Source: Escherichia coli (GTDB lineage: Bacteria > Pseudomonadota > Gammaproteobacteria > Enterobacterales > Enterobacteriaceae). Taken from it: a DNA stretch of 64,000 bases. Position 1 is the first letter of the stretch. The number at the start of each line of letters is the position of its first letter. Of the stretch, positions 1 through 28,491 are shown one piece after another. The notes beneath the pieces were generated by a model, which saw only the letters and a program-made list of their open reading frames with translations, made no database searches and was not told the origin of the DNA. The stretch lies in assembly GCF_003991155.1 (NCBI RefSeq), contig NZ_CP031297.1. One strand, 5' to 3'. The position numbers were made by a program, and so were the translations under genes.

Positions 1-1101
1 ATGGACCACCAGCTAGAAAGTATCGACGGAACAATCATGAGCAAGAGAACCAAAGACAAAGACCTGGAGAAACTCGACGTAATCAAAGACTCACCGCAAA
101 TGAGCCTGTTTGAGATCATTGAATCTCCGGCCAAGAAAGACGACTACTCCAACACCATCGAGATCTACGATGCGCTGCCGAAGTACATTTGGGACCAAAA
201 GCGTGAGCATGAAGATTTATCCAACGCTGTAGTGACACGACAATGCACCATCAGAGGCCAGCATTTCACGGTGAAGGTGAAGCCAGCCATCATCGAGAAG
301 GATGACGGAAGAACCGTGCTGATCTACGCGGGACAGCGAGAGGAAATCCTTGAGGATGCTCTACGCAAGCTCGCAGTGAACGGGAAAGGCCATATCATCG
401 AGGGCAAGGCTGGAGTCATGTTCACTCTGTACGAACTCCAGAAAGAGCTCTCGAAGATGGGTCACGGTTACAACCTGAACGAAATCAAGGAAGCAATCCA
501 GGTTTGTCGTGGCGCAACACTCGAATGTATCAGTGATGACGGCGAAGCCTTCATCAGCTCCAGCTTCTTCCCGATGGTGGGACTTACCACCAGAGGTGAG
601 TTTCGCAAGAAAGGCGGGAACGCCAGGTGCTATGTGCAGTTCAACCCGCTGGTAAACGAATCGATCATGAATCTGTCGTTTCGTCAGTACAACTACAAAA
701 TCGGAATGCAAATCCGCTCCCCTCTTGCACGGTACATCTACAAGCGAATGAGCCACTACTGGACTCAAGCATCGCCAGATTCGCCGTACACGCCATCGCT
801 TATCAGCTTCCTGACACAGAGCCCTCGTGAATTGAGCCCACGGATGCCGGAGAACGTCAGAGCTATGAAGCTCGCTCTGGAGGCCCTCATCAAACAAGAG
901 GTCATAAGCGACTACGACGCGAACCAGATCAAGGATGGCCGCAGAGTCATCGACGTGCGGTACGTCATAAGGCCTCATGAGAACTTCGTGAAGCAGGTGA
1001 TGGCGTCCAACAAGCGTAAGCAGCAGACAGAGCTACGGGCCATCAAGCAAGGCATGATCGACCACGACATCATTGATGAACCCCAGCGTAAGGGGAGGTA
1101 G
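1..1101 (+). CDS. putative plasmid replication initiator (Rep); possibly 5'-truncated at window edge
   Basis: 366-aa ORF ending ~120 bp upstream of an iteron array with DnaA boxes and an AT-rich segment; assignment is contextual, no catalytic motif recognised. Confidence 0.4.
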   Translation: MDHQLESIDGTIMSKRTKDKDLEKLDVIKDSPQMSLFEIIESPAKKDDYSNTIEIYDALPKYIWDQKREHEDLSNAVVTRQCTIRGQHFTVKVKPAIIEKDDGRTVLIYAGQREEILEDALRKLAVNGKGHIIEGKAGVMFTLYELQKELSKMGHGYNLNEIKEAIQVCRGATLECISDDGEAFISSSFFPMVGLTTRGEFRKKGGNARCYVQFNPLVNESIMNLSFRQYNYKIGMQIRSPLARYIYKRMSHYWTQASPDSPYTPSLISFLTQSPRELSPRMPENVRAMKLALEALIKQEVISDYDANQIKDGRRVIDVRYVIRPHENFVKQVMASNKRKQQTELRAIKQGMIDHDIIDEPQRKGR

Positions 1102-1140
1102 CCACCAGAAGCTCCCAATACCCCAGGGAAAAGAAAGATA

Positions 1141-1161
1141 GGCGCGTCAGCGCCTTTTTTT
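1141..1161 (+). terminator. rho-independent terminator-like hairpin after Rep ORF
   Basis: GGCGC-GTCA-GCGCC stem-loop followed by T7 run. Confidence 0.55.
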
Positions 1162-1629
1162 ATGCCAGAAGAAAGCGCACAAGGTACGCCCACAAGGAAA
1201 GACCGGAAACGGAATGCCTCCGCATATGGGGGAGCTGCACGGATAGAGCGAACGTGACCCCAGATGCTTCGTGGGCTGAGGCTCGATATATGGGAACGTT
1301 GCACGGTAGTTGCAAGCCGAGTCTCAGTATCGTGCAAGCGTAAGCCACGACGAAGGATAAGTGCCATGCTGCTCCAGTGGTTCCCGTAGAGTGGTTCCCG
1401 TAAGGTATTGATAGTTAAAGGGTGAGGATGTGGGGGACCTGCACGTTATGAGATTTGATATGTGGGTACGTTGCACGAAAGCAGGTTCTGAACCTCTCGA
1501 TATATGGGAACTCTGCACGATTGACGAAGCAGAACAAAGATTGACAGATCAGGACAAACCTAAAAAGGCAGTCAAAATGACTCCAATAGTCCATAAAGTG
1601 ATCGTGCTCACATAAAAAGAGGCCAAAAG

Positions 1630-1638
1630 TTATCCACA
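1630..1638 (+). promoter_or_regulatory. DnaA box TTATCCACA
   Basis: Exact match to consensus DnaA box inside iteron region. Confidence 0.6.
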
Positions 1639-1888
1639 TTTCCTGTGCATAAACGGGGTTTTGGTATGTGGGAGCGCTGCACGATCACATGTGGGTACGC
1701 TGCACGGAGCAAAAAACGACCAAAATTGATATATGGGAACGTTGCACGTTAAGAAGAGAATATATGGGCTGACTGCACGTATAACCTTAGACATGTGGGA
1801 ACACTGCACGAACACCAGTTCTGATATGTGGGAACGCTGCACGAAAGCTCTGTTTTGTAAGGATTTTGTGGAAAAAAAAGGGGTTCCG

Positions 1889-1907
1889 TGTGGATAACAG
1901 TGGATAA
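1889..1907 (-). promoter_or_regulatory. two adjacent DnaA-box-like sites (TGTGGATAA, GTGGATAA)
   Basis: Reverse-complement matches to TTATCCACA, 11 bp apart, within iteron region. Confidence 0.55.
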
Positions 1908-2040
1908 GATCCAAGGGTATGTGGGGGCGTTGCACGGCAACCTATGGGTTCGCTGCACGGCAACCTATGGGTTCGTTGCACGGAATAAATATGAAAATGC
2001 CAGCAATATCAATGCGTTGAATGACAACTCAGAGCGCCTA

Positions 2041-2150
2041 ACCTGTTTTTAACCGCTTTTAATCCTTTATACAAAGATCTAAAGATCTTTATATTTATCC
2101 TTTTGATCGCTGAGCAAAAAATAATCAACACTGTTTTTTAGAGAAAAGTC
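2041..2150. other. AT-rich segment flanking iterons (candidate DNA-unwinding element)
   Basis: Visibly AT-rich with AAAGATCTAAAGATCTTT palindrome containing two GATC sites. Confidence 0.45.
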
Positions 2151-2593
2151 TCGTATGCAAGGCCGAACAGGACGAGTATCACTAACAAGATAAGCATCGA
2201 CAGCACAAAGTAACCAGACTCGTACACCACAGCTTTGATCACAGAAACGACGCTGATCGATCTTCCAGAGATCCTCCCGATGATCCAGTGAAACGCAACG
2301 AACGAACCAAGCCCACAGATCAGCACCACCGCTACGGAGACAAGTGCATGTTCCCTCAGGACAGACTCACTAAGGAAACCATACTGCATCCCCATCAATA
2401 CAAGCCTGCCAATGCCAAACCCCAGACCCAATGCAACAGCTCCACGAACCAGCACAACCTTCAACGACTGGAGCCATGTCAGTTCAAGATCCATCCCCTT
2501 ACGGGAAGACCGACGCACCAGCACCATAGATATGCCCAGCCCCAAAAACACCAAAAAAACAAAATCCAACATTACCACCTCTGCACAAATCAA
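2138..2593 (-). CDS. polytopic inner-membrane protein, unknown function
   Basis: 151-aa ORF with ~4 hydrophobic segments; 4-bp overlap with upstream PAPS-reductase-like gene (operon). Confidence 0.5.
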   Translation of the reverse strand: MICAEVVMLDFVFLVFLGLGISMVLVRRSSRKGMDLELTWLQSLKVVLVRGAVALGLGFGIGRLVLMGMQYGFLSESVLREHALVSVAVVLICGLGSFVAFHWIIGRISGRSISVVSVIKAVVYESGYFVLSMLILLVILVLFGLAYETFL

Positions 2594-3705
2594 TCAGAAC
2601 CACAGGCCTCTCGGCCAAATGCGCCACCAGGGAGAACCCACTTCTGCCCCTCCGGCACAAAAATCGGGAGCGTGTAATCCTCTCTGGATACCTGCTCCAA
2701 TGCCTCAACATCACTAATCTGTATCGGCGCAACAGCAGAACCTAAATCTATTACGTCGATTTTTTTTCTTGATACCGTCACACCAAAGGTTTGTTCATAC
2801 TGAGCAATCTTCCCAGCTCGTTCAGGCCAGTAGTGACGGATAGTGGACCAGATACGCTGTGAGTTGTAGATGCAGGTCATACACGAAGACCGGCTCCAAC
2901 CAAGGCGATAAGGGACTGGGGCCAGAATGCGGTGACGCTCGATTACTTCCCATACCTCTTCCTCAGTCCAATGAAGAACGGGCCTCCAGGCATCAACTAA
3001 CCGTGCAGTCTTCCCATATCTTCTGTCACAGGCATGAGCCTCAAGCTGGTTGTACTTGGATCTGTTTGCACTTTCCTCCCGGCGCTCACCAGTGATGAAA
3101 AGGATCTTCTTCCCCTTGAAGCGCTCCTGGTTATTAAGAGCTCTGCGGCCAACATCGATCTTCAAGGCTGATGAACACCACCTTGTTTGGAGTGATGGCG
3201 ATTGCTGAGGGAAACGAAGGCGTGTACCAGGCTTAGAGCGCTTATGGTCTCTAGGCAGCACCAGAAGCCCCTCAGGCGTCTCTACACGATGGGGGTGGCT
3301 ATAGGCATTGTCTTTGAGCATTTCGCCCTCAAAGCCGCCCTCAAGCCACGAGAAGTACATTGGGACACCCAGTTCTTCCCCGAGCTGACGACAGTAATCA
3401 CGCATGAAGGCCCAATCCATCAACGAACTACCTTCCTGACCATCAACATCATGGTGCCAGAACTCCACCTTTGACTTATCAACACCCATGTCCACCAGCC
3501 GCAAGTACGCAGCAATCGAGTCCTTGCCTCCAGACAGGCAAACAATGATGTGGTCGTACAAACTCAAGTCCACATCCGGCGCTGAGAAGTACGTTGTTCT
3601 ATCGTCACAACGCTGACTGGAAGATATACCGGTAAGAACCGACTCCAGTGATGGCAACACCACCTGGTCATCGAACAAATCTCCTTGGTTTTCTCGTCTC
3701 AACAT
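2590..3705 (-). CDS. PAPS reductase-family / PP-loop ATP pyrophosphatase-like protein
   Basis: 371 aa; PP-loop motif SGGKDS near N-terminus, ~120-aa C-terminal extension. Confidence 0.75.
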   Translation of the reverse strand: MLRRENQGDLFDDQVVLPSLESVLTGISSSQRCDDRTTYFSAPDVDLSLYDHIIVCLSGGKDSIAAYLRLVDMGVDKSKVEFWHHDVDGQEGSSLMDWAFMRDYCRQLGEELGVPMYFSWLEGGFEGEMLKDNAYSHPHRVETPEGLLVLPRDHKRSKPGTRLRFPQQSPSLQTRWCSSALKIDVGRRALNNQERFKGKKILFITGERREESANRSKYNQLEAHACDRRYGKTARLVDAWRPVLHWTEEEVWEVIERHRILAPVPYRLGWSRSSCMTCIYNSQRIWSTIRHYWPERAGKIAQYEQTFGVTVSRKKIDVIDLGSAVAPIQISDVEALEQVSREDYTLPIFVPEGQKWVLPGGAFGREACGSD

Positions 3706-3742
3706 AAGTCGCTCTTTTTTCTTTACTGGGTTGTTTTTATGA

Positions 3743-3772
3743 TTTACAGTATTATAAAATGATGCTGTGAAA
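3743..3772. promoter_or_regulatory. 28-bp palindrome family copy (TTTACAGTATTATAAAATGATGCTGTGAAA)
   Basis: Imperfect inverted repeat in divergent intergenic region; family recurs ~9x. Confidence 0.5.
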
Positions 3773-3935
3773 AGTAAAGTTTTCAGAACGACCAGTCACT
3801 CAGGAGAACTTGATAAGCACCAGAAAGCAATCTAAAGGTGGTTTTTCGGTGAGGTTAGTTCAGGGGCAACCTGTCTTGCTGATTGAAAATCATCAAGAAG
3901 TGGTTTTTTGGTGTGGTTACGGTTTGAGGGGGTGA

Positions 3936-3955
3936 GTATGTGGGAACGTTGCACG
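3936..3955. repeat. isolated iteron copy (TATGTGGGAACGTTGCACGG)
   Basis: Exact iteron consensus ~2 kb from main array, 18 bp upstream of ORF start 3973. Confidence 0.6.
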
Positions 3956-3972
3956 GTTAAAGGGGGCCGCAC

Positions 3973-4581
3973 ATGAAAACGATAAAGCGGTTCATCGTAT
4001 GGGTGAATTACGGTCTTGAGGGTTGGAGCATTTTCGGATCGAGCGATGACTGGGATGAAGCGGTATCCATCCGTTCGGAAGCGATAGACGAATGCAATAT
4101 TGATGAGGAAGACATCATCTTGGCAGAAAACAAAAACGAGCTGGTGGTAAAACCTGCGGCCAAGCAAATGACGGAGTGGCACCGGGAACTGGAAGCCGTC
4201 CTTATGACCTTGGATGACTGCCAGATGGAATGTGACGGCATGACATGGGCAGTAAGCCACCTACTCAATGACGCGGGTGTACCTCATGACTGCATGTATG
4301 GTTTTGTGCGAAACGAACAGACCAAGGACATCGTGACACCGCATTTCTGGGTTGTCCTGGATGATGGGTGGTTGGTGGATCTGAGGCTACGCATGTGGCT
4401 TGGCGATCACGACAACATTCCTCACGGGGTATTCCATCCCGATAACGAGCCAGGATTTTTCTACAAGGGAGACCCCGTTCAAAACCATAAAGGGATGAGA
4501 CTGGGCAAAGCCGTCCTGGACATCATGACCGACGGAAAAATTTCACATGTGAAAGTTCCTGAACGACAAGACGGAGAGTAA
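3973..4581 (+). CDS. hypothetical protein
   Basis: 202-aa ORF with RBS; no recognisable motif. Confidence 0.5.
   Translation: MKTIKRFIVWVNYGLEGWSIFGSSDDWDEAVSIRSEAIDECNIDEEDIILAENKNELVVKPAAKQMTEWHRELEAVLMTLDDCQMECDGMTWAVSHLLNDAGVPHDCMYGFVRNEQTKDIVTPHFWVVLDDGWLVDLRLRMWLGDHDNIPHGVFHPDNEPGFFYKGDPVQNHKGMRLGKAVLDIMTDGKISHVKVPERQDGE
4540..4555. promoter_or_regulatory. parS-like palindrome TTTCACATGTGAAA (family copy, imperfect flanks)
   Basis: Core palindrome inside 3' end of ORF 3973..4581. Confidence 0.5.
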
Positions 4582-4585
4582 TAGC

Positions 4586-5107
4586 GTGGAATTTGATTAC
4601 GACAAGTCAGTATCAAACGCACATCTTGAGGCCGCAGGCTGGGGTATGGATGCCTTTAATCACTCCAACCCATTTGAGAGCCATGTCATCTATGTGCGTG
4701 ACTACCGCAACGATCACATCCGCCTGTTCACCATCAAGAAGGCTGACTTCGACACGATAAAGCTGCCGCTTCACCTTACCTCCGACATGCTGGCTTCGGT
4801 GATCGCTGAGTTCGTATCGAAGGCAGCAAAAGGGAAGTTGAATACGAAGGAGTCCGATACGCTGGCTCCTGCCTTGGTTGGCTATGCCAAATCAACAGAA
4901 ACCTACCGGAGCTGGCGGAGAGTGTCTGGAACAACAGAGCGATTGCATATGGTCATCAATATCTACGCGGGTTCTGGATTGCTGAGACCTTTCATCGCTC
5001 GGGCTCCTGAGACCGTCCTGACGACCCAAGAGCTACTGGTCTTCTCATCACAGGTTAAGAACATGGATGTATCCAATCATCCAGAGTGGTTTAGGGGCCT
5101 GAGGTAG
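4586..5107 (+). CDS. hypothetical protein (GTG start)
   Basis: 173-aa ORF. Confidence 0.45.
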   Translation: MEFDYDKSVSNAHLEAAGWGMDAFNHSNPFESHVIYVRDYRNDHIRLFTIKKADFDTIKLPLHLTSDMLASVIAEFVSKAAKGKLNTKESDTLAPALVGYAKSTETYRSWRRVSGTTERLHMVINIYAGSGLLRPFIARAPETVLTTQELLVFSSQVKNMDVSNHPEWFRGLR

Positions 5108-5109
5108 TC

Positions 5110-5631
5110 ATGAAGGCAGTTCTCTGGATATTCGTCCTTATCATTGCACCTTTCGTCATTGCGAAAGTGGACCAGTGGCGCAAACGCGGCATTGGAGACA
5201 CCTGGGCGTGGTGGAAATCAGAGAACATGCCTTATGAGCTGCGCTCGGCCACTCTGTTTTTATCCGAACAGGACATATCAACCACACAGCCGGTGCCCAT
5301 GCACGGCAGGGTTGATCAGGTGTACAAAGCCAAGAATGGGGTTCTCATTCCCTTGGACACCAAGCTGCGCCAGGTAAACCACATCTATGAGTCGGACATT
5401 ATCCAGCTCTCGGTTTACCGGGTAATTCTGTCACACAAGTACAAGGCACCCGTTGCCAAGTACGGCTATGTCCGAACCGTTGTTGAGACAGCGGACGGGG
5501 ATAGAGTCCGTTACATCAAGACAAACCTTCTCAGCGAAAAAGAAGTGGTCAAGTTGTGGCACCGCTATCAATCCATCCGTTCTGGTCAGGTAAAAACCTC
5601 CTGTTCCTGTGGCGGAAAGTTTCACATGTGA
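5110..5631 (+). CDS. hypothetical protein with N-terminal TM helix
   Basis: 173-aa ORF, RBS GAGG upstream. Confidence 0.5.
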   Translation: MKAVLWIFVLIIAPFVIAKVDQWRKRGIGDTWAWWKSENMPYELRSATLFLSEQDISTTQPVPMHGRVDQVYKAKNGVLIPLDTKLRQVNHIYESDIIQLSVYRVILSHKYKAPVAKYGYVRTVVETADGDRVRYIKTNLLSEKEVVKLWHRYQSIRSGQVKTSCSCGGKFHM

Positions 5632-5635
5632 AAGT
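5618..5635. promoter_or_regulatory. parS-like 18-bp palindrome AGTTTCACATGTGAAAGT
   Basis: Overlaps stop codon of ORF 5110..5631. Confidence 0.5.
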
Positions 5636-5727
5636 TCTGGATTGAATTAGGGTTGCCCGAATTGGGCAGCTAGGCGGGGTTGCATTTTTGAAAAGTCCTG
5701 TACGCTGGTTGGTATAGGAGGTGAATA

Positions 5728-6201
5728 GTGGCCCAGCTTAAACATAACCGCTTCGTCATGTTGGGGTCCTTGGTAGCGACGGTCGTAGCTGCTGCGAATG
5801 GCTTGAGTTTTCTCACCCTTATGGCTGGTGGAATGACCCTTATCCAGTTCATGGCTTGGAAGCAACAAGATGCTGTCCGTAGCCGGTTTAAAGCTGCGAA
5901 GGATGCGTTTGAAGCGTTGAACGTTATTGCGTTCGACAAGCACTGGGTAGGTTCAACCGCGACGGTCGCCAAAGTGTCGAACATGATCACTCCGCCCGAA
6001 CGACTGGATAAGCCCTGGGCGGTGCAAGTTCTGGCCGTAACCAAAGGTGGGACGTGGTTCGCAGTGGATCTGCAAGTGACCGGCACTGACAAGGTTCAGA
6101 TGCTTAGCCTCCACCAGCTTAGTGAAAAGGCGGCAAAGACCATGCTGGCCTTCGACCTCGAAGTGTATGAAAAATTTTTCGGAAAACCTGATGTTGCATG
6201 A
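5728..6201 (+). CDS. hypothetical membrane protein (GTG start)
   Basis: 157 aa, hydrophobic N-terminal segments, RBS AGGAGG. Confidence 0.45.
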   Translation: MAQLKHNRFVMLGSLVATVVAAANGLSFLTLMAGGMTLIQFMAWKQQDAVRSRFKAAKDAFEALNVIAFDKHWVGSTATVAKVSNMITPPERLDKPWAVQVLAVTKGGTWFAVDLQVTGTDKVQMLSLHQLSEKAAKTMLAFDLEVYEKFFGKPDVA

Positions 6202-6505
6202 GGACAATGTGATGGAAAAAGTCAAAAGCGTAGATGCCGTGGAGTTCACGGCAGCAGATAAGAAGGCGATGACCCATGCGGCATACGCCCAGTGTTTCTT
6301 CATTCTGGCCCAAGTGATGGCATTCCCTTCCCTAGGGGTGGCTGGCGCTATGGTTGCTGCTCTGTGCGGCATGATGCCGTGGTTGACCAAGTTCGCCAAA
6401 GAGGCTCCATCGAAAGCCTTTGGCATGGTGATGGCTTCACTCTGCCTTGCTCCTGTGTACGGGAAACTCTGTGAGCTGGTGGTCCACGCGATTCAGGGAG
6501 CTTGA
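6191..6505 (+). CDS. hypothetical membrane protein
   Basis: ~104 aa from internal ATG of ORF 6122..6505; hydrophobic. Confidence 0.35.
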   Translation: MLHEDNVMEKVKSVDAVEFTAADKKAMTHAAYAQCFFILAQVMAFPSLGVAGAMVAALCGMMPWLTKFAKEAPSKAFGMVMASLCLAPVYGKLCELVVHAIQGA

Positions 6506-6509
6506 GCTT

Positions 6510-7364
6510 ATGGGGGTAGTACGAGTTCCCTACCTCTTGGCTGAGCTGAAAGAACGCGGATGTGCTGATGAATCTGCTCTGGCGCAGGTTATGCAGCCTG
6601 GATGCCGAATTGGAGAGGAAGACCTACGGAAGTTGGCCGCAAATTTAGGGCTTGAAGTTTCTGAGCTGGCACCAGCGCCAGAGAACGCGGCCAACACCCG
6701 GTTCAAAGCAAAGCTGAGAGGAGGTTTGGCCTCCTTTCTTTTTGAGTACGACGGCTGTTTCCGACATGCCGAAGGCTCCAGCCATGCAGAAATGTTGGGT
6801 ATCGAGCAAGAAGACGATATTGGTCTTCCGAGTCGAGCTGCTGACGCCATGCTCCTGGAAAAGATGCTTTACCAGGTAATCGCTCGGGCTAAGTACATGC
6901 TCGGCAAAATCGACAGCAAGTTTGTCAGGTCAGAACAAGCAATCGAGTTCCGTGAGCAACTTGCTCCTGGGATCTTCAGGCCAGGGTACAGAGGTTTCCG
7001 ATTCAAGGAGGCTGCCGCTGGTGATTTGCCTACAGTCATGATTGACGGTCGGAAGTTCAATTGCGTTGCCAGTATAGCCAGAGCGCATGGACTTGATCCG
7101 GTAACGGTGCGTAGGCGCATTGCGGACACAAGGAAGGCCGCAGACAAACTCTCCAATGATGAGTGGAAACTCATCCTCGCCAAGAAAAAAGGTAAAGGGA
7201 AACCCTTCACCTATCTGGACAGGACCTACAGCAACATTGCCCAGTTCTGTCGTGAGCATCAGCTCAACACCAACCTTGTTTACCAGAAAGTCAAAGACCG
7301 GGCTGATAGCGCTGATGAAGAGTTCTGGGGACAGATAATCGAAACATGCAAAAGGAAAGACTAA
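6510..7364 (+). CDS. hypothetical protein
   Basis: ~284 aa from ATG 6510 of ORF 6447..7364. Confidence 0.45.
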   Translation: MGVVRVPYLLAELKERGCADESALAQVMQPGCRIGEEDLRKLAANLGLEVSELAPAPENAANTRFKAKLRGGLASFLFEYDGCFRHAEGSSHAEMLGIEQEDDIGLPSRAADAMLLEKMLYQVIARAKYMLGKIDSKFVRSEQAIEFREQLAPGIFRPGYRGFRFKEAAAGDLPTVMIDGRKFNCVASIARAHGLDPVTVRRRIADTRKAADKLSNDEWKLILAKKKGKGKPFTYLDRTYSNIAQFCREHQLNTNLVYQKVKDRADSADEEFWGQIIETCKRKD

Positions 7365-8323
7365 TGGCAGAAAACAAAGAGATCCCCTGGGAGAAAGAGC
7401 TCATTGAGAAGTACATGTTCACCCTGCATAAAGAGCAGGTGAAAGACCGGCGCTGGCGGACCATGTTGCGTGTGCTTCGCGCATCAGGTTTCGTGCTTCT
7501 CATGATCGGCTTCATCATTTTGGCATCTAATCCGGGTGGGATGCCGTGGCAAAGCGCCAAGGCTGGAGCCCCTCACACCGCGTATATCAACATCCGTGGT
7601 GAAATTGCTGCTGGCACACTGGCCGATGCTGATCACCTTATCCCGTCCATCCAAGCAGCATTCGACAACCCGAATTCACAAGCTGTCGTGCTTCGCATAA
7701 ACAGCCCTGGCGGTAGCCCGGTTCAAGCAGGACGGATTTATGAAGAAGTGAAGGCGCAGCGAGCCCTTCATCCGGAGAAAAAGGTCTACGCCATCATTGA
7801 TGACATCGGTGCCTCTGGCGGTTATTACATCGCCTCTGCTGCGGATGAAATCTATGCTGACCGCGCCAGTCTTGTCGGTTCTATCGGCGTCATTAGCTCA
7901 GGGTTTGGATTCACCGGCTTGATGGACAGGCTCGGCATCGAGCGCCGGGCAATCACTTCCGGAGAGCACAAAGCGCTTCTCGACCCATTCTCCCCTCTTA
8001 CCTCTGATATGAAGAAATTCTGGGAGGGCGTTCTATCGAAAACCCACCAGCAGTTCATCGAACGAGTGAAGGCTGGGCGGGGTGATCGACTGAAAGACGC
8101 CCCAGAGGTGTTTTCTGGATTGCTCTGGAACGGGGAGCAGGCCAAAGAAATTGGGCTGATTGATGGCCTGGGGAGTTTGAACTCCGTGGCGCGAGACGTC
8201 ATCCACCAGAGCAACTTGGTGGACTACACACCAACCGAAGACATCATCCGGCGACTGACCCAACGAGCGAAGCTCGAAGCCAGTTCCTTCGTGCAAGAAC
8301 TCAGCGCTGTGAAAGTTTACTGA
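7346..8323 (+). CDS. S49-family peptidase (SppA-like, signal peptide peptidase)
   Basis: 325 aa; TM anchor then IDDIGASGGYYIASAAD serine-nucleophile region typical of SppA/ClpP-fold S49. Confidence 0.8.
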   Translation: MQKERLMAENKEIPWEKELIEKYMFTLHKEQVKDRRWRTMLRVLRASGFVLLMIGFIILASNPGGMPWQSAKAGAPHTAYINIRGEIAAGTLADADHLIPSIQAAFDNPNSQAVVLRINSPGGSPVQAGRIYEEVKAQRALHPEKKVYAIIDDIGASGGYYIASAADEIYADRASLVGSIGVISSGFGFTGLMDRLGIERRAITSGEHKALLDPFSPLTSDMKKFWEGVLSKTHQQFIERVKAGRGDRLKDAPEVFSGLLWNGEQAKEIGLIDGLGSLNSVARDVIHQSNLVDYTPTEDIIRRLTQRAKLEASSFVQELSAVKVY

Positions 8324-25273: not shown

Positions 25274-26212
25274 ATGGCTGTTATCAACTCACTCCGCGCT
25301 CTCAAAGGCGTAACCGCCCCCGAAGAACTGAAAAAAGGGGATGGATTCACTATCTCTCCTCAGCTTCTGCTGGAGGAAGAAGGGTTTAACACCCGTGGCG
25401 CTTTCTGCGAGGACTACTACGAGCGCCCGGACATCAAAGCTGGTATTCGAGTGCTGGCCGATGCTTACAAGCGTGGCGACTATGTTCCGCCGATCATCGT
25501 CAAAGTTATCGACGGAAAGGTGTATGTCCGTGAAGGTCATCGCCGTCGCCGCGCCATCCTGCTTGCTATAGAGGAAGGTGCCGACATCCAGTTCGTGCAG
25601 GTCGTAGAGCACAAGGGCGATGAAGCCGAACAGAGCCTTCTGATCGCCACCAGCAACGATGGGCTCCCTCTTTCTCCACTTGAGCGAGCCGTGATCTACG
25701 CTCGGCTTGCAAACTGGGGGTGGAGCGACCAGATGATTGCCCAACGTGTTGGCCGCTCGGCTGAGCACGTTCGTATCGCCCGTGCCCTTTTGGAGATGCC
25801 TCTGGAACTGAAACGGATGATTCAGGAAGGCTCTGTGGCTGCCACCTACGCTCAGGAGCTCTACAACGAGCACGGCACCAACGCTGTTGAGATCCTGAAA
25901 AAGGCGCAGGAAGAACAGGCCAGTGGCAATGACGGCAAGAAGGCCCCGAAAAAACTGACCAAAAAGTCTGTCGAGAAAGGTCCCCGCCTGGGCAAAAAGG
26001 TGGTTGAAGCCATGCACCGAGGCGTGAGCTCTATTACCAGTCGTCTGGACAACATCAAGCCGAACGATGACGGTGAAACGTTCACCCTTACCCTGAGCCG
26101 GGAAGATGTTGATGCGTTTCAGGAGCTGAAAGCCAAGCTGGCGGAGCTGGAGCCCAAAACTGACGAGTCCAATGAAGACCAGCAAGAGCTGGATTTGGCG
26201 GGTAATCAGTAA
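25274..26212 (+). CDS. ParB/Srx-domain protein (second, orphan ParB-like; KorB-like candidate)
   Basis: 312 aa; ParB N-domain motif VREGHRRRRAIL, HTH region, Lys-rich C-terminus; no adjacent ParA. Confidence 0.7.
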   Translation: MAVINSLRALKGVTAPEELKKGDGFTISPQLLLEEEGFNTRGAFCEDYYERPDIKAGIRVLADAYKRGDYVPPIIVKVIDGKVYVREGHRRRRAILLAIEEGADIQFVQVVEHKGDEAEQSLLIATSNDGLPLSPLERAVIYARLANWGWSDQMIAQRVGRSAEHVRIARALLEMPLELKRMIQEGSVAATYAQELYNEHGTNAVEILKKAQEEQASGNDGKKAPKKLTKKSVEKGPRLGKKVVEAMHRGVSSITSRLDNIKPNDDGETFTLTLSREDVDAFQELKAKLAELEPKTDESNEDQQELDLAGNQ

Positions 26213-26368: not shown

Positions 26369-26647
26369 GTGTCAGTGTTCAGCTCGCGGAGCTCGATGAT
26401 GAACAGTGACAAGAAATCGTCTGAACTAGCCAGACTGAGGCGTCAGCATCAGCTAGTTTGCTCTGTCATCGCAGCCTTGCTCATCTGTGCAGGTATATAT
26501 GGGACCGTTGCACGTTTGGGCTTCATCCTGATGGCGCCATTGTTTGTTATCGCCTTAGGTGTGTTAGTCGATGCGTTCCTGCCAAGGGTAAGTTGGTTCT
26601 TCTGTGTGCGGGACGTGAGAGACATATTTGGGTGGAGAAAACGATAG
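26369..26647 (+). CDS. small membrane protein
   Basis: 92 aa, hydrophobic; contains an isolated iteron copy. Confidence 0.3.
   Translation: MSVFSSRSSMMNSDKKSSELARLRRQHQLVCSVIAALLICAGIYGTVARLGFILMAPLFVIALGVLVDAFLPRVSWFFCVRDVRDIFGWRKR
26495..26514. repeat. isolated iteron copy (ATATATGGGACCGTTGCACG)
   Basis: Near-consensus iteron ~24.5 kb from main array. Confidence 0.5.
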
Positions 26648-26891: not shown

Positions 26892-27254
26892 GTGAGAAGT
26901 GTTTTTGTATGGTTGAAGGCCGGGGCAATACTGGCTTTCCTATTCTTCGGTATTGCTGGTGCTGTCAACCGGGTCTATTGGGTTAACAGCCAAGGTTTGA
27001 GCCAGGGGTCGATGTCATCCACATTGGTTAAAGAAAAGTTTGGCCTAGACCTTGGTGCAATGTGCCGTTATGACAAACCCCAGCATGTCGAGTTCAAAGT
27101 CCTTCCTGATCAGACAATCCAGTTCCGCTGCTCATGGTTTGAAGGTGGCGGATTAACCTGGTGGCCTTTCTACACCGAGCATGATGTAAAGAGCGCCGAG
27201 GCGACCTCTGTGCTCAATGACATATTCCAGGGTACGGAGGGGCATGATGAGTAG
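26892..27254 (+). CDS. hypothetical membrane/secreted protein
   Basis: 120 aa with N-terminal hydrophobic segment. Confidence 0.4.
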   Translation: MRSVFVWLKAGAILAFLFFGIAGAVNRVYWVNSQGLSQGSMSSTLVKEKFGLDLGAMCRYDKPQHVEFKVLPDQTIQFRCSWFEGGGLTWWPFYTEHDVKSAEATSVLNDIFQGTEGHDE

Positions 27255-28491
27255 CCAGCTAGAACTCTTTCATGTCCAAGAGGCGTATGCCAAGGCCGAT
27301 AAGCCGTTATCGAATGAGGAGCTCTACGATTCGGTGGCAGAGCTCGCTGGAATCCCGAAAAGCGCTCTGAATGAACAAAGTGAAATTGGCAAGGCAAAGG
27401 TCAAGCGGAGCAAGCTGAAAAGACAGATACGCTGGTATCAGCAAACCCTCAAGTCGATGAACCTTCTCCAGAAGGTGGACGGCGAGCGGGGTGTCTGGGA
27501 GCTCTCAAGCAAAACCAAGAAGGGCCTGCATGAAGCGCTAGGTGGCGTTCGACTGGTCGCTTATTCAACAAATCTTGGGCTGGCGGTGTGGTCAAACAAC
27601 AAGAGCTTTTTCTCTGACCTCGATGAGCCGGTGCATCTGTGTGTGACATCTCCGCCGTTCCCGCTCCGTATACAGCGTGGCTATGGAAACGTTGATGAAG
27701 CCAAATGGGTGGATTTCATTACTCAGGCACTCGAACCGATAGTCAAGAACCTGGTGCCAGGAGGAAGCGTTGTCCTGAATGTCAGCAATGACATATTCGA
27801 GGCCAAGAGCCCCTCCAGATCTCTCTACGTTGAGCGAATGGTGCTGGCGCTCCATGATCGGCTTGGGCTCTCTCTCATGGATAGATGGCCGTGGATCAAC
27901 CTGTCAAAACCACCAAGTCCGACCCACTGGGCTTGTGTGAACCGTTACCAGTTGTGTGCCGGGTGGGAGCCTGTTTATTGGTTCACCAACGACCCTGACA
28001 GGGTGCGTTCTGACAACAGAAGGGTCCTGATCCCTCATACAGAGAAACATCAGAAGCTGATGGCCCAAGGCGGTGATAACAGAGTGGTCAGTTATGGTGA
28101 CGGGGCATATCGACTGAGAGGGAACGCATTCTCTAACGTCACGGAAGGACGGATACCGAAAAACGTTATCCAGCGCGGCCACCGTTGTGCGGATACTCTG
28201 GAGCTTCGGAGAATCGCTAGAGAACTGGGGTTGCCACCGCACCCGGCAATGTTCCCAACAGACATACCTGAAATGGCTATCCGCTTTCTGACGGAAGAGG
28301 GCGACCTTGTTGTTGATCCGTTCAGTGGGTCGAATAAGAGCGGGTTGGCCGCAGAAAGGAATAACCGGCGCTGGATCGCCTGTGACATCATTCTTGAGTA
28401 CATTCGCACCCAGGCGGAAATGTTCACCGGCTTTGATGGATTTTGGATGAACCCGGCCATAGCAGCAGTGGGCGGGGGAGCGTTGAATTAA
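27244..28491 (+). CDS. DNA methyltransferase, beta-class N6-adenine or N4-cytosine (orphan)
   Basis: Motif IV TSPPF precedes motif I VVDPFSGSNKSG; RBS GGAGG before ATG 27244; no adjacent endonuclease. Confidence 0.8.
   Translation: MMSSQLELFHVQEAYAKADKPLSNEELYDSVAELAGIPKSALNEQSEIGKAKVKRSKLKRQIRWYQQTLKSMNLLQKVDGERGVWELSSKTKKGLHEALGGVRLVAYSTNLGLAVWSNNKSFFSDLDEPVHLCVTSPPFPLRIQRGYGNVDEAKWVDFITQALEPIVKNLVPGGSVVLNVSNDIFEAKSPSRSLYVERMVLALHDRLGLSLMDRWPWINLSKPPSPTHWACVNRYQLCAGWEPVYWFTNDPDRVRSDNRRVLIPHTEKHQKLMAQGGDNRVVSYGDGAYRLRGNAFSNVTEGRIPKNVIQRGHRCADTLELRRIARELGLPPHPAMFPTDIPEMAIRFLTEEGDLVVDPFSGSNKSGLAAERNNRRWIACDIILEYIRTQAEMFTGFDGFWMNPAIAAVGGGALN

Follow-up and report, generated by a model that had tools for sequence, protein, structure and literature searches.

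Genes at the locus

Two adjacent genes, vcrx007 and vcrx006, encode a PP-loop enzyme and a small membrane protein beside the origin of replication on an IncC plasmid, and are the subject of this analysis. The window studied is a single stretch of 64,000 nucleotides (nt) from the Escherichia coli contig NZ_CP031297.1 (assembly GCF_003991155.1). It is IncC (IncA/C2) plasmid backbone, and over bases 1100-4600 it matches many IncC plasmids, including pR148 and plasmids of the pNDM type, at 100% identity. At least 80% of the stretch 1100-4600 is present in 1,025 of 1,060 matching PLSDB records (~97%), and 978 are typed as conjugative. Both genes are genuine and previously catalogued. The features that frame them are listed here by window coordinates.

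1-1101, at the window start: repA
1224-1982: array of 14 iterons at the origin of replication (oriV), from a pattern search
2138..2572, minus strand: vcrx006, an inner-membrane-type protein of 144 amino acids (aa) with four long helices (hydropathy, AlphaFold2 model)
2573..2589, minus strand: intercistronic spacer of 17 nt, with the Shine-Dalgarno sequence GAGG at 2581-2578, 5 nt before ATG 2572
2590..3705, minus strand: vcrx007, a stand-alone PP-loop enzyme of the phosphoadenosine phosphosulfate (PAPS) reductase superfamily, 371 aa (open reading frame, ORF, with SGGKDS at residues 58-63)

The operon abuts oriV. As a first-pass annotation of the sequence had described, it is transcribed toward the iteron array, and its transcription is also directed toward the origin of transfer (oriT). 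The experimentally defined oriT lies immediately upstream of mobI (PMC3915882). In pR148 mobI is upstream of repA and the gap from the end of mobI to repA is 276 nt, which places the operon ~3.5-4.5 kb from oriT. Apart from repA and oriV, the neighbours of the operon are small plasmid genes of unknown function.

The vcrx007 enzyme

The product of vcrx007 belongs to the PP-loop ATP pyrophosphatase superfamily, with the fold of PAPS and adenosine phosphosulfate (APS) reductases and with three invariant cysteines. The 371-aa frame and its SGGKDS motif had been read correctly from the letters alone. A Pfam search with PF01507 (PAPS_reduct) gives a match confined to residues 166-278 (E 1.3e-7). Beyond this match lie ~90 aa, the C-terminal extension already remarked on, which are helical and modelled with high confidence (AlphaFold2; predicted local distance difference test, pLDDT, 90.9 for the enzyme); the C-terminal tail carries a conserved W-LP-GAF motif.

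Conservation was assessed in an alignment of 56 sequences of the enzyme family, with identity down to 33%. Within the PP-loop, S58, G60 and D62 are invariant, while G59, K61 and S63 are conserved at 90% or more. The other invariant residues are H84, D97, R162, P166, R175, C177, K182, G206, R208, E211 and R215, followed by R241, Y266, R272, S274, C275, C278, E304, P359 and G361. The motifs that emerge are SGGKDS, RWC177S, TGERxEES and SC275xxC278. In the model SGGKDS follows the beta strand 52-56, in the Rossmann-like alpha/beta fold common to PAPS reductase, TilS, TtuA and QueC, and fold comparison places vcrx007 nearest to the [4Fe-4S] APS reductase. The CxxC motif aligns, via Orf84 of phage 186, to the GCxPCT cluster ligands of APS reductases. 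C177, C275 and C278 are compatible with a [4Fe-4S] cluster, and judging from these residues vcrx007 is probably an iron-sulfur (Fe-S) enzyme. The gene is under strong purifying selection, with a ratio of nonsynonymous to synonymous substitution rates (dN/dS) of 0.069.

In one homologue of 655 aa (P0195) an intein-like insertion splits the SCxxC motif (SCMSC, then FTADTE ... GNCIFGS). The position of the intein inside the motif indicates that the CxxC site is functionally central.

A search of the PDB with the core fragment of the enzyme alone gave no match. The best PDB sequence match is chain C of 21fy, 'PptA', a protein of 270 aa (profile E 2.4e-4). This match spans the CxxC motif and the next helical segment, and only ~60 residues align. 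No description of PptA as a PP-loop protein was found in the literature, and PptA is absent from the Foldseek copy of the PDB.

Comparison with sulfonucleotide reductases and phosphorothioation enzymes

The RefSeq name of the enzyme is 'phosphoadenosine phosphosulfate reductase family protein', and its fold matches both CysH and APS reductase. Even so, it is very improbable that vcrx007 is an auxiliary metabolic gene for an ordinary PAPS/APS reductase (CysH) of sulfate assimilation. All four NCBIfam models score far below their cut-offs: 19.2 bits against 165.1 for TIGR00434 (cysH), 28.4 against 235.3 for TIGR02055 (APS reductase), 14.5 against 254.2 for TIGR02057 (PAPS reductase) and 26.1 against 154 for NF002537. 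Identity to the solved APS reductases (PDB 2goy, 7lhr) and CysH proteins (1sur, 6vpu) is 11-16%. Compared with these enzymes vcrx007 has a canonical SGGKDS and the extra C-terminal domain, and it lacks the conserved ECG[LI]H catalytic tail, ending instead in ...GREACGSD. No cysDN, cysC or cysIJ genes lie near vcrx007; its relatives stand in plasmid, integrative and conjugative element (ICE) and phage contexts, the family being restricted to mobile elements. On the sub-cut-off scores and this non-metabolic context an ordinary CysH was rejected, and the first-pass annotation was right to see a PAPS-reductase fold outside sulfate assimilation.

The flexible tail of vcrx007, residues 365-371 (2590-2610), ends in E-A-C-G-S-D and in close relatives takes the form ExCGxx. 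It resembles the catalytic ECGLH tail of sulfonucleotide reductases. P0073 lacks the tail cysteine, as do most members of the wider family, whose sequences end in GP[TS].

DndC, SspD and BrxP belong to the PAPS-reductase superfamily, and by their sequences they appear to share with vcrx007 the ATP pyrophosphatase chemistry of the PP-loop and cysteines suited to an Fe-S cluster. The best PADLOC matches of vcrx007 are to these proteins (BrxP 9e-14, SspD 3.2e-9, DndC 6.3e-9), and DndC-like and DndB genes occasionally lie near its homologues. The matches are, however, limited to a shared core, residues 169-300; the models themselves run to 277-779 positions. With the DndC model TIGR03183 the score is 36.8 bits, where the cut-off is 290.4, and only residues 169-256 are covered. 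The enzyme is much shorter than DndC and BrxP (the 779-position model) and stands alone, and no DndA/D/E, SspA/B/C or bacteriophage exclusion (BREX) partner was recognized within 6 kb in the window. Three of the five flanking plus-strand ORFs were scanned with PADLOC, NCBIfam and PHROGs, and none of them is a Dnd, Ssp or BREX gene, the sole match being Cas4-like. Where a DndC-like protein does occur near a homologue, it is separate and much larger. A true phosphorothioation sulfurtransferase of the DndC/SspD/BrxP type, working with Dnd, Ssp or BREX partners of the host or elsewhere on the plasmid, is therefore quite improbable. A bona fide member of these families was rejected on the sub-cut-off scores and the missing partners, and the likeness to DndC raised at first sight does not make the enzyme a DndC.

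An enzyme family of mobile elements

The vcrx007 clade is a distinct branch of the PAPS-reductase PP-loop superfamily, specific to mobile elements and found almost only on plasmids, ICEs and phages. A genome scan with 13 close sequences likewise placed relatives on plasmids, ICEs and phages. The family numbers 1,714 homologues in a collection reduced to 90% identity, and 1,652 clusters at 50% identity. In PLSDB it is carried by 1,483 plasmids, 1,142 of them conjugative; ~430 of the 1,483 fall outside IncA/C, their hosts being Acinetobacter, Pseudomonas, Vibrio, Klebsiella, Citrobacter, Roseomonas and Lysinibacillus.

Among phage proteins, vcrx007 matches phrog_424 of PHROGs (E 7.9e-34, residues 51-314), the family of the non-essential Orf84 of phage 186, with which it aligns at an hhalign probability of 99.7% (E 2.6e-25). 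The two have in common the PP-loop, R(W/F)CS, GERxEES and S/G-C-x-x-C motifs, followed by a helical segment, and both families sit on mobile elements, often beside replication or DNA-modification genes. Identity between Orf84 and vcrx007 is nevertheless only ~28%. The IncC clade has WHHxVDG...MDW in place of the Orf84-type DTG, and its conserved C-terminal W-LP-GAF tail is an addition.

About one sixth of the top 150 family representatives are longer than 450 aa and thus carry extra sequence. The fused domains were described for 19 of these long proteins, among them the following.

P0283: fused phage portal
P0188, P0266 and P0275: fused InPase (PF18823)
P0301: two ART-PolyVal domains (PF18760)
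P0275: InPase together with a Mom-like domain and a second PP-loop domain
P0199: fused C5 DNA methyltransferase
P0298: ParB-like and GHKL domains

Also among the fusions is a region with a match to the 'DarB-like antirestriction' family of PHROGs. Domains of these kinds are characteristic of proteins delivered, or expressed early, by phages and conjugative elements, and a fused pyrophosphatase (InPase) fits a reaction that releases pyrophosphate. In such polyvalent proteins (Iyer et al. 2017, PMC5512222) the vcrx007 homologues form a C-terminal module beside InPase, ART-PolyVal, portal, Mom-like and methylase domains, unlike vcrx007 itself, which is a single-domain, stand-alone protein. Within its main text that survey mentions no PAPS-reductase or PP-loop module, nor is a PAPS reductase mentioned in the leading-region paper or the EVADES preprint.

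At 30 loci outside IncA/C-like backbones the enzyme gene stands alone within arrays of small co-directional genes. The genes near these homologues include orphan N6/N4 and C5 DNA methylases, KlcB, DUF4942, H-NS, ERCC4 and DndB. At six loci (L005, L017, L022, L024, L025 and L029) the homologue has a separate DndC-like PP-loop protein (563-863 aa), sometimes with DndB, no more than 6 kb away. In phage KB12-38 (L012) a single cluster holds two PAPS-reductase-like proteins, two methylases and DndB.

The fusions, and the neighbourhoods with methylase and DndB/DndC-like genes, favor nucleic-acid modification for counter-defense. A DNA modification or anti-restriction function, as the first-pass annotation had proposed, is plausible on this evidence, which bears on it indirectly. 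The enzyme might also be counter-defensive and yet act on another target: on transfer or ribosomal RNA, by thiolation or a lysidine-like modification that blocks anticodon nucleases; on protein, by conjugation of the QueC/Cap9 kind; or on a nucleotide immune signal. We regard a target of this sort as a possibility worth keeping in mind but unlikely, given that the C5 DNA methylase, Mom-like and ParB-like fusions and the recurrent DNA methylase and DndB/DndC-like neighbours all point to DNA.

Beside several distant homologues a small gene overlaps the start of the enzyme gene by 4-8 nt (L002 7714-8004, L009 6679-7002, L008 6793-6993, L005 9615-10052). The products of the L002 and L005 genes have a common arginine-rich motif that could be a ribbon-helix-helix. 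The IncC locus has no equivalent of this small gene.

The membrane protein vcrx006 and the gene junction

Hydropathy and the AlphaFold2 model (pLDDT 79.5) agree on four hydrophobic helices in vcrx006, as the first reading of the translation had it, and an intramembrane Cys-Gly motif, C86-G-L-x-S-F, is invariant. The first reading had also given the protein 151 aa and a 4-bp overlap with the enzyme gene. This hangs on a TTG at 2593 that finds no support; in the Aeromonas relatives the overlapping TTG is out of frame. RefSeq, the pVCR94 annotation (where vcrx006 is 2954-3388, corresponding to 2138-2572 of the window) and most called homologues use the ATG at 2572-2570. This start gives a protein of 144 aa and thus sets the two genes 17 nt apart. 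Five IncA/C-like backbones, 85-96% identical in the enzyme gene, show no variation over a 35-nt run (2585-2619) at the spacer.

Homologues of vcrx006 occur only in syntenic IncA/C-like backbones, namely IncC plasmids, IncA-like plasmids of Photorhabdus, Vibrio and Shewanella, and untyped Aeromonas plasmids. In each of these the membrane gene immediately follows the enzyme gene, even where its product is only ~50% identical, and a dN/dS of 0.185 indicates purifying selection on the membrane protein. Outside these backbones, none of the 30 loci has a vcrx006 homologue next to the enzyme gene. Conservation of the pair is therefore divided: it persists in IncA/C-like plasmids and is absent from the family at large, and an obligate pairing of enzyme and membrane protein is not upheld. 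Two related sequences bear on the same point. In the metagenomic L038 (3872-4990) the enzyme gene is a pseudogene, with a frameshift, four in-frame stops and loss of the PP-loop, and the membrane gene is intact; in L039 (5001-5457) it is the membrane gene that has a frameshift, and the enzyme gene next to it is intact. An assembly error is possible in both cases. Either gene can decay independently of the other. We conclude that vcrx006 is a lineage-specific addition, co-transcribed with the enzyme gene only in IncA/C-like plasmids, and that enzymes of the vcrx007 family do not in general need it.

Searches of Pfam, NCBIfam, PADLOC, PHROGs and PDB sequences (E up to 10) with vcrx006 returned no match, and a fold search of AFDB found only its own family and non-specific four-helix proteins. 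A fragment from Vibrio parahaemolyticus that is 43% identical (A0A7Y0XH16) bears the UniProt label 'Sulphur transport domain-containing', a label that was not reproduced. None of 19 members of the vcrx006 family matches Pfam Sulf_transp (PF04143), and there is no match to a solved YeeE. Identification of vcrx006 as the exclusion factor EexC or Sfx was rejected, these being other genes (vcrx085 and a gene beside traG). The protein is also unlike Hok-type peptides, given its 144 aa and four helices.

Some of these observations would suit an obligate two-part module of vcrx007 and vcrx006, in which the membrane protein supplies sulfur or another substrate, or a toxin/antidote-like pair that acts in maintenance by the origin. 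The genes are co-directional and closely spaced behind one predicted promoter, and in RNA sequencing (RNA-seq) of pVCR94 Rockhopper calls vcrx007-vcrx006 an operon (PMC4207636 Dataset S1). The pair is retained in Aeromonas relatives even where the membrane protein is only ~50% identical, and both the invariant Cys-Gly motif and the UniProt label could be taken to point to sulfur. Such a module is improbable all the same: the 30 loci without a membrane homologue, the inactivation of each gene beside an intact partner and the lack of any Sulf_transp or PDB match all speak against it. The toxin-like module considered in the first-pass annotation also finds no support, with no match to toxin, antitoxin or defense models in PADLOC, NCBIfam or Pfam. 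Nor is the locus reported as a maintenance gene in the published RNA-seq and transposon-insertion sequencing (TnSeq) papers.

Promoter, repeats and iterons

The promoter, repeats and iterons in and around the operon are as follows.

2069..2094: palindrome of 26 bp, ATACAAAGATCT..AGATCTTTATAT, between the 3' end of the operon and the origin, with two AGATCT (GATC) sites
3002..3019, minus strand: 18-mer ATATGGGAAGACTGCACG resembling a RepA iteron, at codons 229-235 of the enzyme gene, inverted with respect to the origin array
3743..3771: imperfect inverted repeat, a candidate operator, with ACAGTATTAT, a 3-nt loop, ATGATGCTGT and flanking pairs
3751..3778, minus strand: predicted sigma-70 promoter of the operon, with -35 TTTACT (3778-3773), a 16-nt spacer and -10 TATAAT (3756-3751)
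3938..3955, plus strand: isolated RepA iteron, 17 nt upstream of the gene at 3973 and ~230 nt from the enzyme start codon

The predicted promoter has 10 of 12 consensus matches. Its hexamers lie in runs (3770-3787 and 3746-3763) that are invariant in the five backbones, as do the gene junction, the palindrome (runs 2059-2079 and 2081-2102) and the internal iteron. A 28-bp palindrome had been placed in the promoter region. An inverted repeat is indeed present at ~3743-3771 and overlaps the predicted -10, but it is imperfect, its 10-nt arms being complementary at 8 of 10 positions (single-stranded DNA fold), and an exact-seed repeat finder did not report it; the clean palindrome is the one at 2069-2094, beyond the 3' end of the operon. 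Neither there nor elsewhere after the operon was an intrinsic terminator predicted.

The iteron pattern search over the whole 64-kb window gave 17 matches, against 0.13 expected by chance. The isolated iteron described in the first reading is present at 3938-3955, a position conserved in all six related backbones, but it is nearer to the divergent gene at 3973 than to the enzyme start. The iteron at 3002-3019 had been missed. Six IncA/C-like backbones, among them the one with the enzyme pseudogene, have this 18-mer without a single change, and it lies inside a 27-nt invariant run (2999-3025). This invariance suggests selection on the DNA sequence for putative RepA binding.

The locus could matter chiefly in cis, the outlying iterons serving RepA in copy-number control or handcuffing and the coding functions being incidental cargo. 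Perfect conservation of both iterons in six backbones with an overall identity of 85-96%, even in the lineage with the enzyme pseudogene, and the position of the operon against oriV agree with such a role. As the main significance of the locus it is improbable in our view. Selection acts on both proteins, as the dN/dS values (0.069 and 0.185) show, and the enzyme family flourishes in elements whose replicons are unrelated. The cis and coding roles are, moreover, not mutually exclusive.

Flanking genes and outlying sites

Divergent from the operon is a group of five plus-strand ORFs.

3973 (start of the first gene), plus strand: five divergent ORFs, of which the three scanned lie within 3973-5631

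The third gene of this divergent operon (5110-5631, plus strand, 173 aa) has weak matches to Cas4 and PD-(D/E)XK nucleases (PADLOC E ~1e-6; TIGR00372 below cut-off), and its product has a C-terminal Cys-rich motif, CSCGGK. The intergenic region between the two operons holds two 35-nt direct repeats, 3823-3857 and 3885-3919, which are 62 nt apart and share the core GTGGTTTTTYGGTGWGGTTA. Repeats with this core were found nowhere else in the 64-kb window, and they may be a regulator site for the plus-strand operon. An Rfam search of window positions 1-8000 gave no match.

A third outlying iteron, ATATGGGACCGTTGCACG, lies at 26497-26514 on the plus strand, ~24.5 kb from the origin and between the plus-strand ORFs 25274-26212 and 27217-28491. 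In related backbones a conserved iteron, ATGTGGGTATGCTGCACG, is found at L015 ~10833, L037 ~8724, L038 ~8688 and L039 ~8739. It lies just upstream of mobI on the side away from repA, that is, in or near the oriT region.

Proposed function of vcrx007

The reading that we favor, tentatively and with a little less than even confidence, is that vcrx007 is a stand-alone accessory enzyme of mobile elements that modifies nucleic acid for establishment or counter-defense, with vcrx006 as a lineage-specific companion. ATP would be bound at SGGKDS and an oxygen of the nucleic-acid substrate adenylated, with release of pyrophosphate. The adenylate would then be exchanged for sulfur held on a three-cysteine [4Fe-4S] cluster, as in DndC, SspD and TtuA, and the helical C-terminal domain would bind the substrate. 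By this modification the incoming element might be marked or protected, or a host defense countered, upon establishment in a new cell. The very low expression in established cells would perhaps be due to control by the operator-like repeat across the -10, together with the RepA iterons in and beside the gene.

Several points weigh against this proposal. No biochemical or genetic result for any member of the clade was found, either on the substrate (DNA, RNA, protein or small molecule) or on the transferred group. We infer that C177 is the counterpart of the CC pair of cluster ligands in APS reductases, and the proposed cluster depends on this assignment. None of the genes beside vcrx007 codes for a cysteine desulfurase or for a DndD/E or SspB/C partner. 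A TnSeq study of the transfer of pVCR94 into Vibrio cholerae singled out only vcrx089-093 for defense evasion (PMC7498323), which implies that vcrx007 is not needed against the type I restriction-modification and clustered regularly interspaced short palindromic repeat (CRISPR) systems of that host. Expression in donors gives no encouragement either. The pVCR94 data give vcrx007 9 reads per kilobase per million in wild-type cells and 0 both when acaCD is deleted and when AcaCD is induced (repA, in the same order: 134, 37 and 31); it is outside the AcaCD regulon, is not induced by AcaCD (PMC4207636 Dataset S1) and is nearly silent. A single-strand promoter of the Frpo type is not supported, since the single-stranded folds of both flanking intergenic regions are unremarkable (z -0.58 upstream of the operon and -0.79 for the other). 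Finally, the literature yielded neither the nick strand nor the direction of transfer of IncC relative to the operon.

In a full-text literature search no paper discussing vcrx007 in IncA/C plasmids was found. A 2026 preprint speaks of a phage PAPS reductase that evades Dnd, and no paper reporting this protein was found.

A bolder version of the proposal, which we consider doubtful, takes the clade as a self-sufficient, single-polypeptide enzyme for nucleic-acid thiolation (or another adenylation-driven modification) used on entry against host immunity. In phages it would be packaged in portal-linked or polyvalent proteins. In IncA/C-like plasmids it would be wired to replication through the RepA iterons and joined to a membrane protein whose invariant intramembrane cysteine may feed it sulfur.

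Significance

IncC plasmids are among the main carriers of carbapenemase genes and multidrug resistance, and their host range is unusually broad. The enzyme is kept in ~97% of them, and its family comprises more than 1,600 protein clusters across plasmids, ICEs and phages, with no functionally characterized member. Members are routinely mislabelled as sulfate-assimilation enzymes or 'auxiliary metabolic genes'. The interest of vcrx007 is moderate and rests mainly on this large, clinically placed and functionally blank family. The conserved iteron within it hints at a link between replication control and the expression of accessory genes. If vcrx007 is a stand-alone modifier of nucleic acid for counter-defense, it would represent a new class of enzyme in the anti-restriction repertoire, would help to explain the breadth of the IncC host range and would offer a testable handle, being a single gene with clear catalytic residues and an existing genetic system in pVCR94. 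If single-polypeptide thiolation also holds, the family would amount to a kind of DNA modification that is new among mobile elements and does not depend on Dnd, Ssp or BREX.

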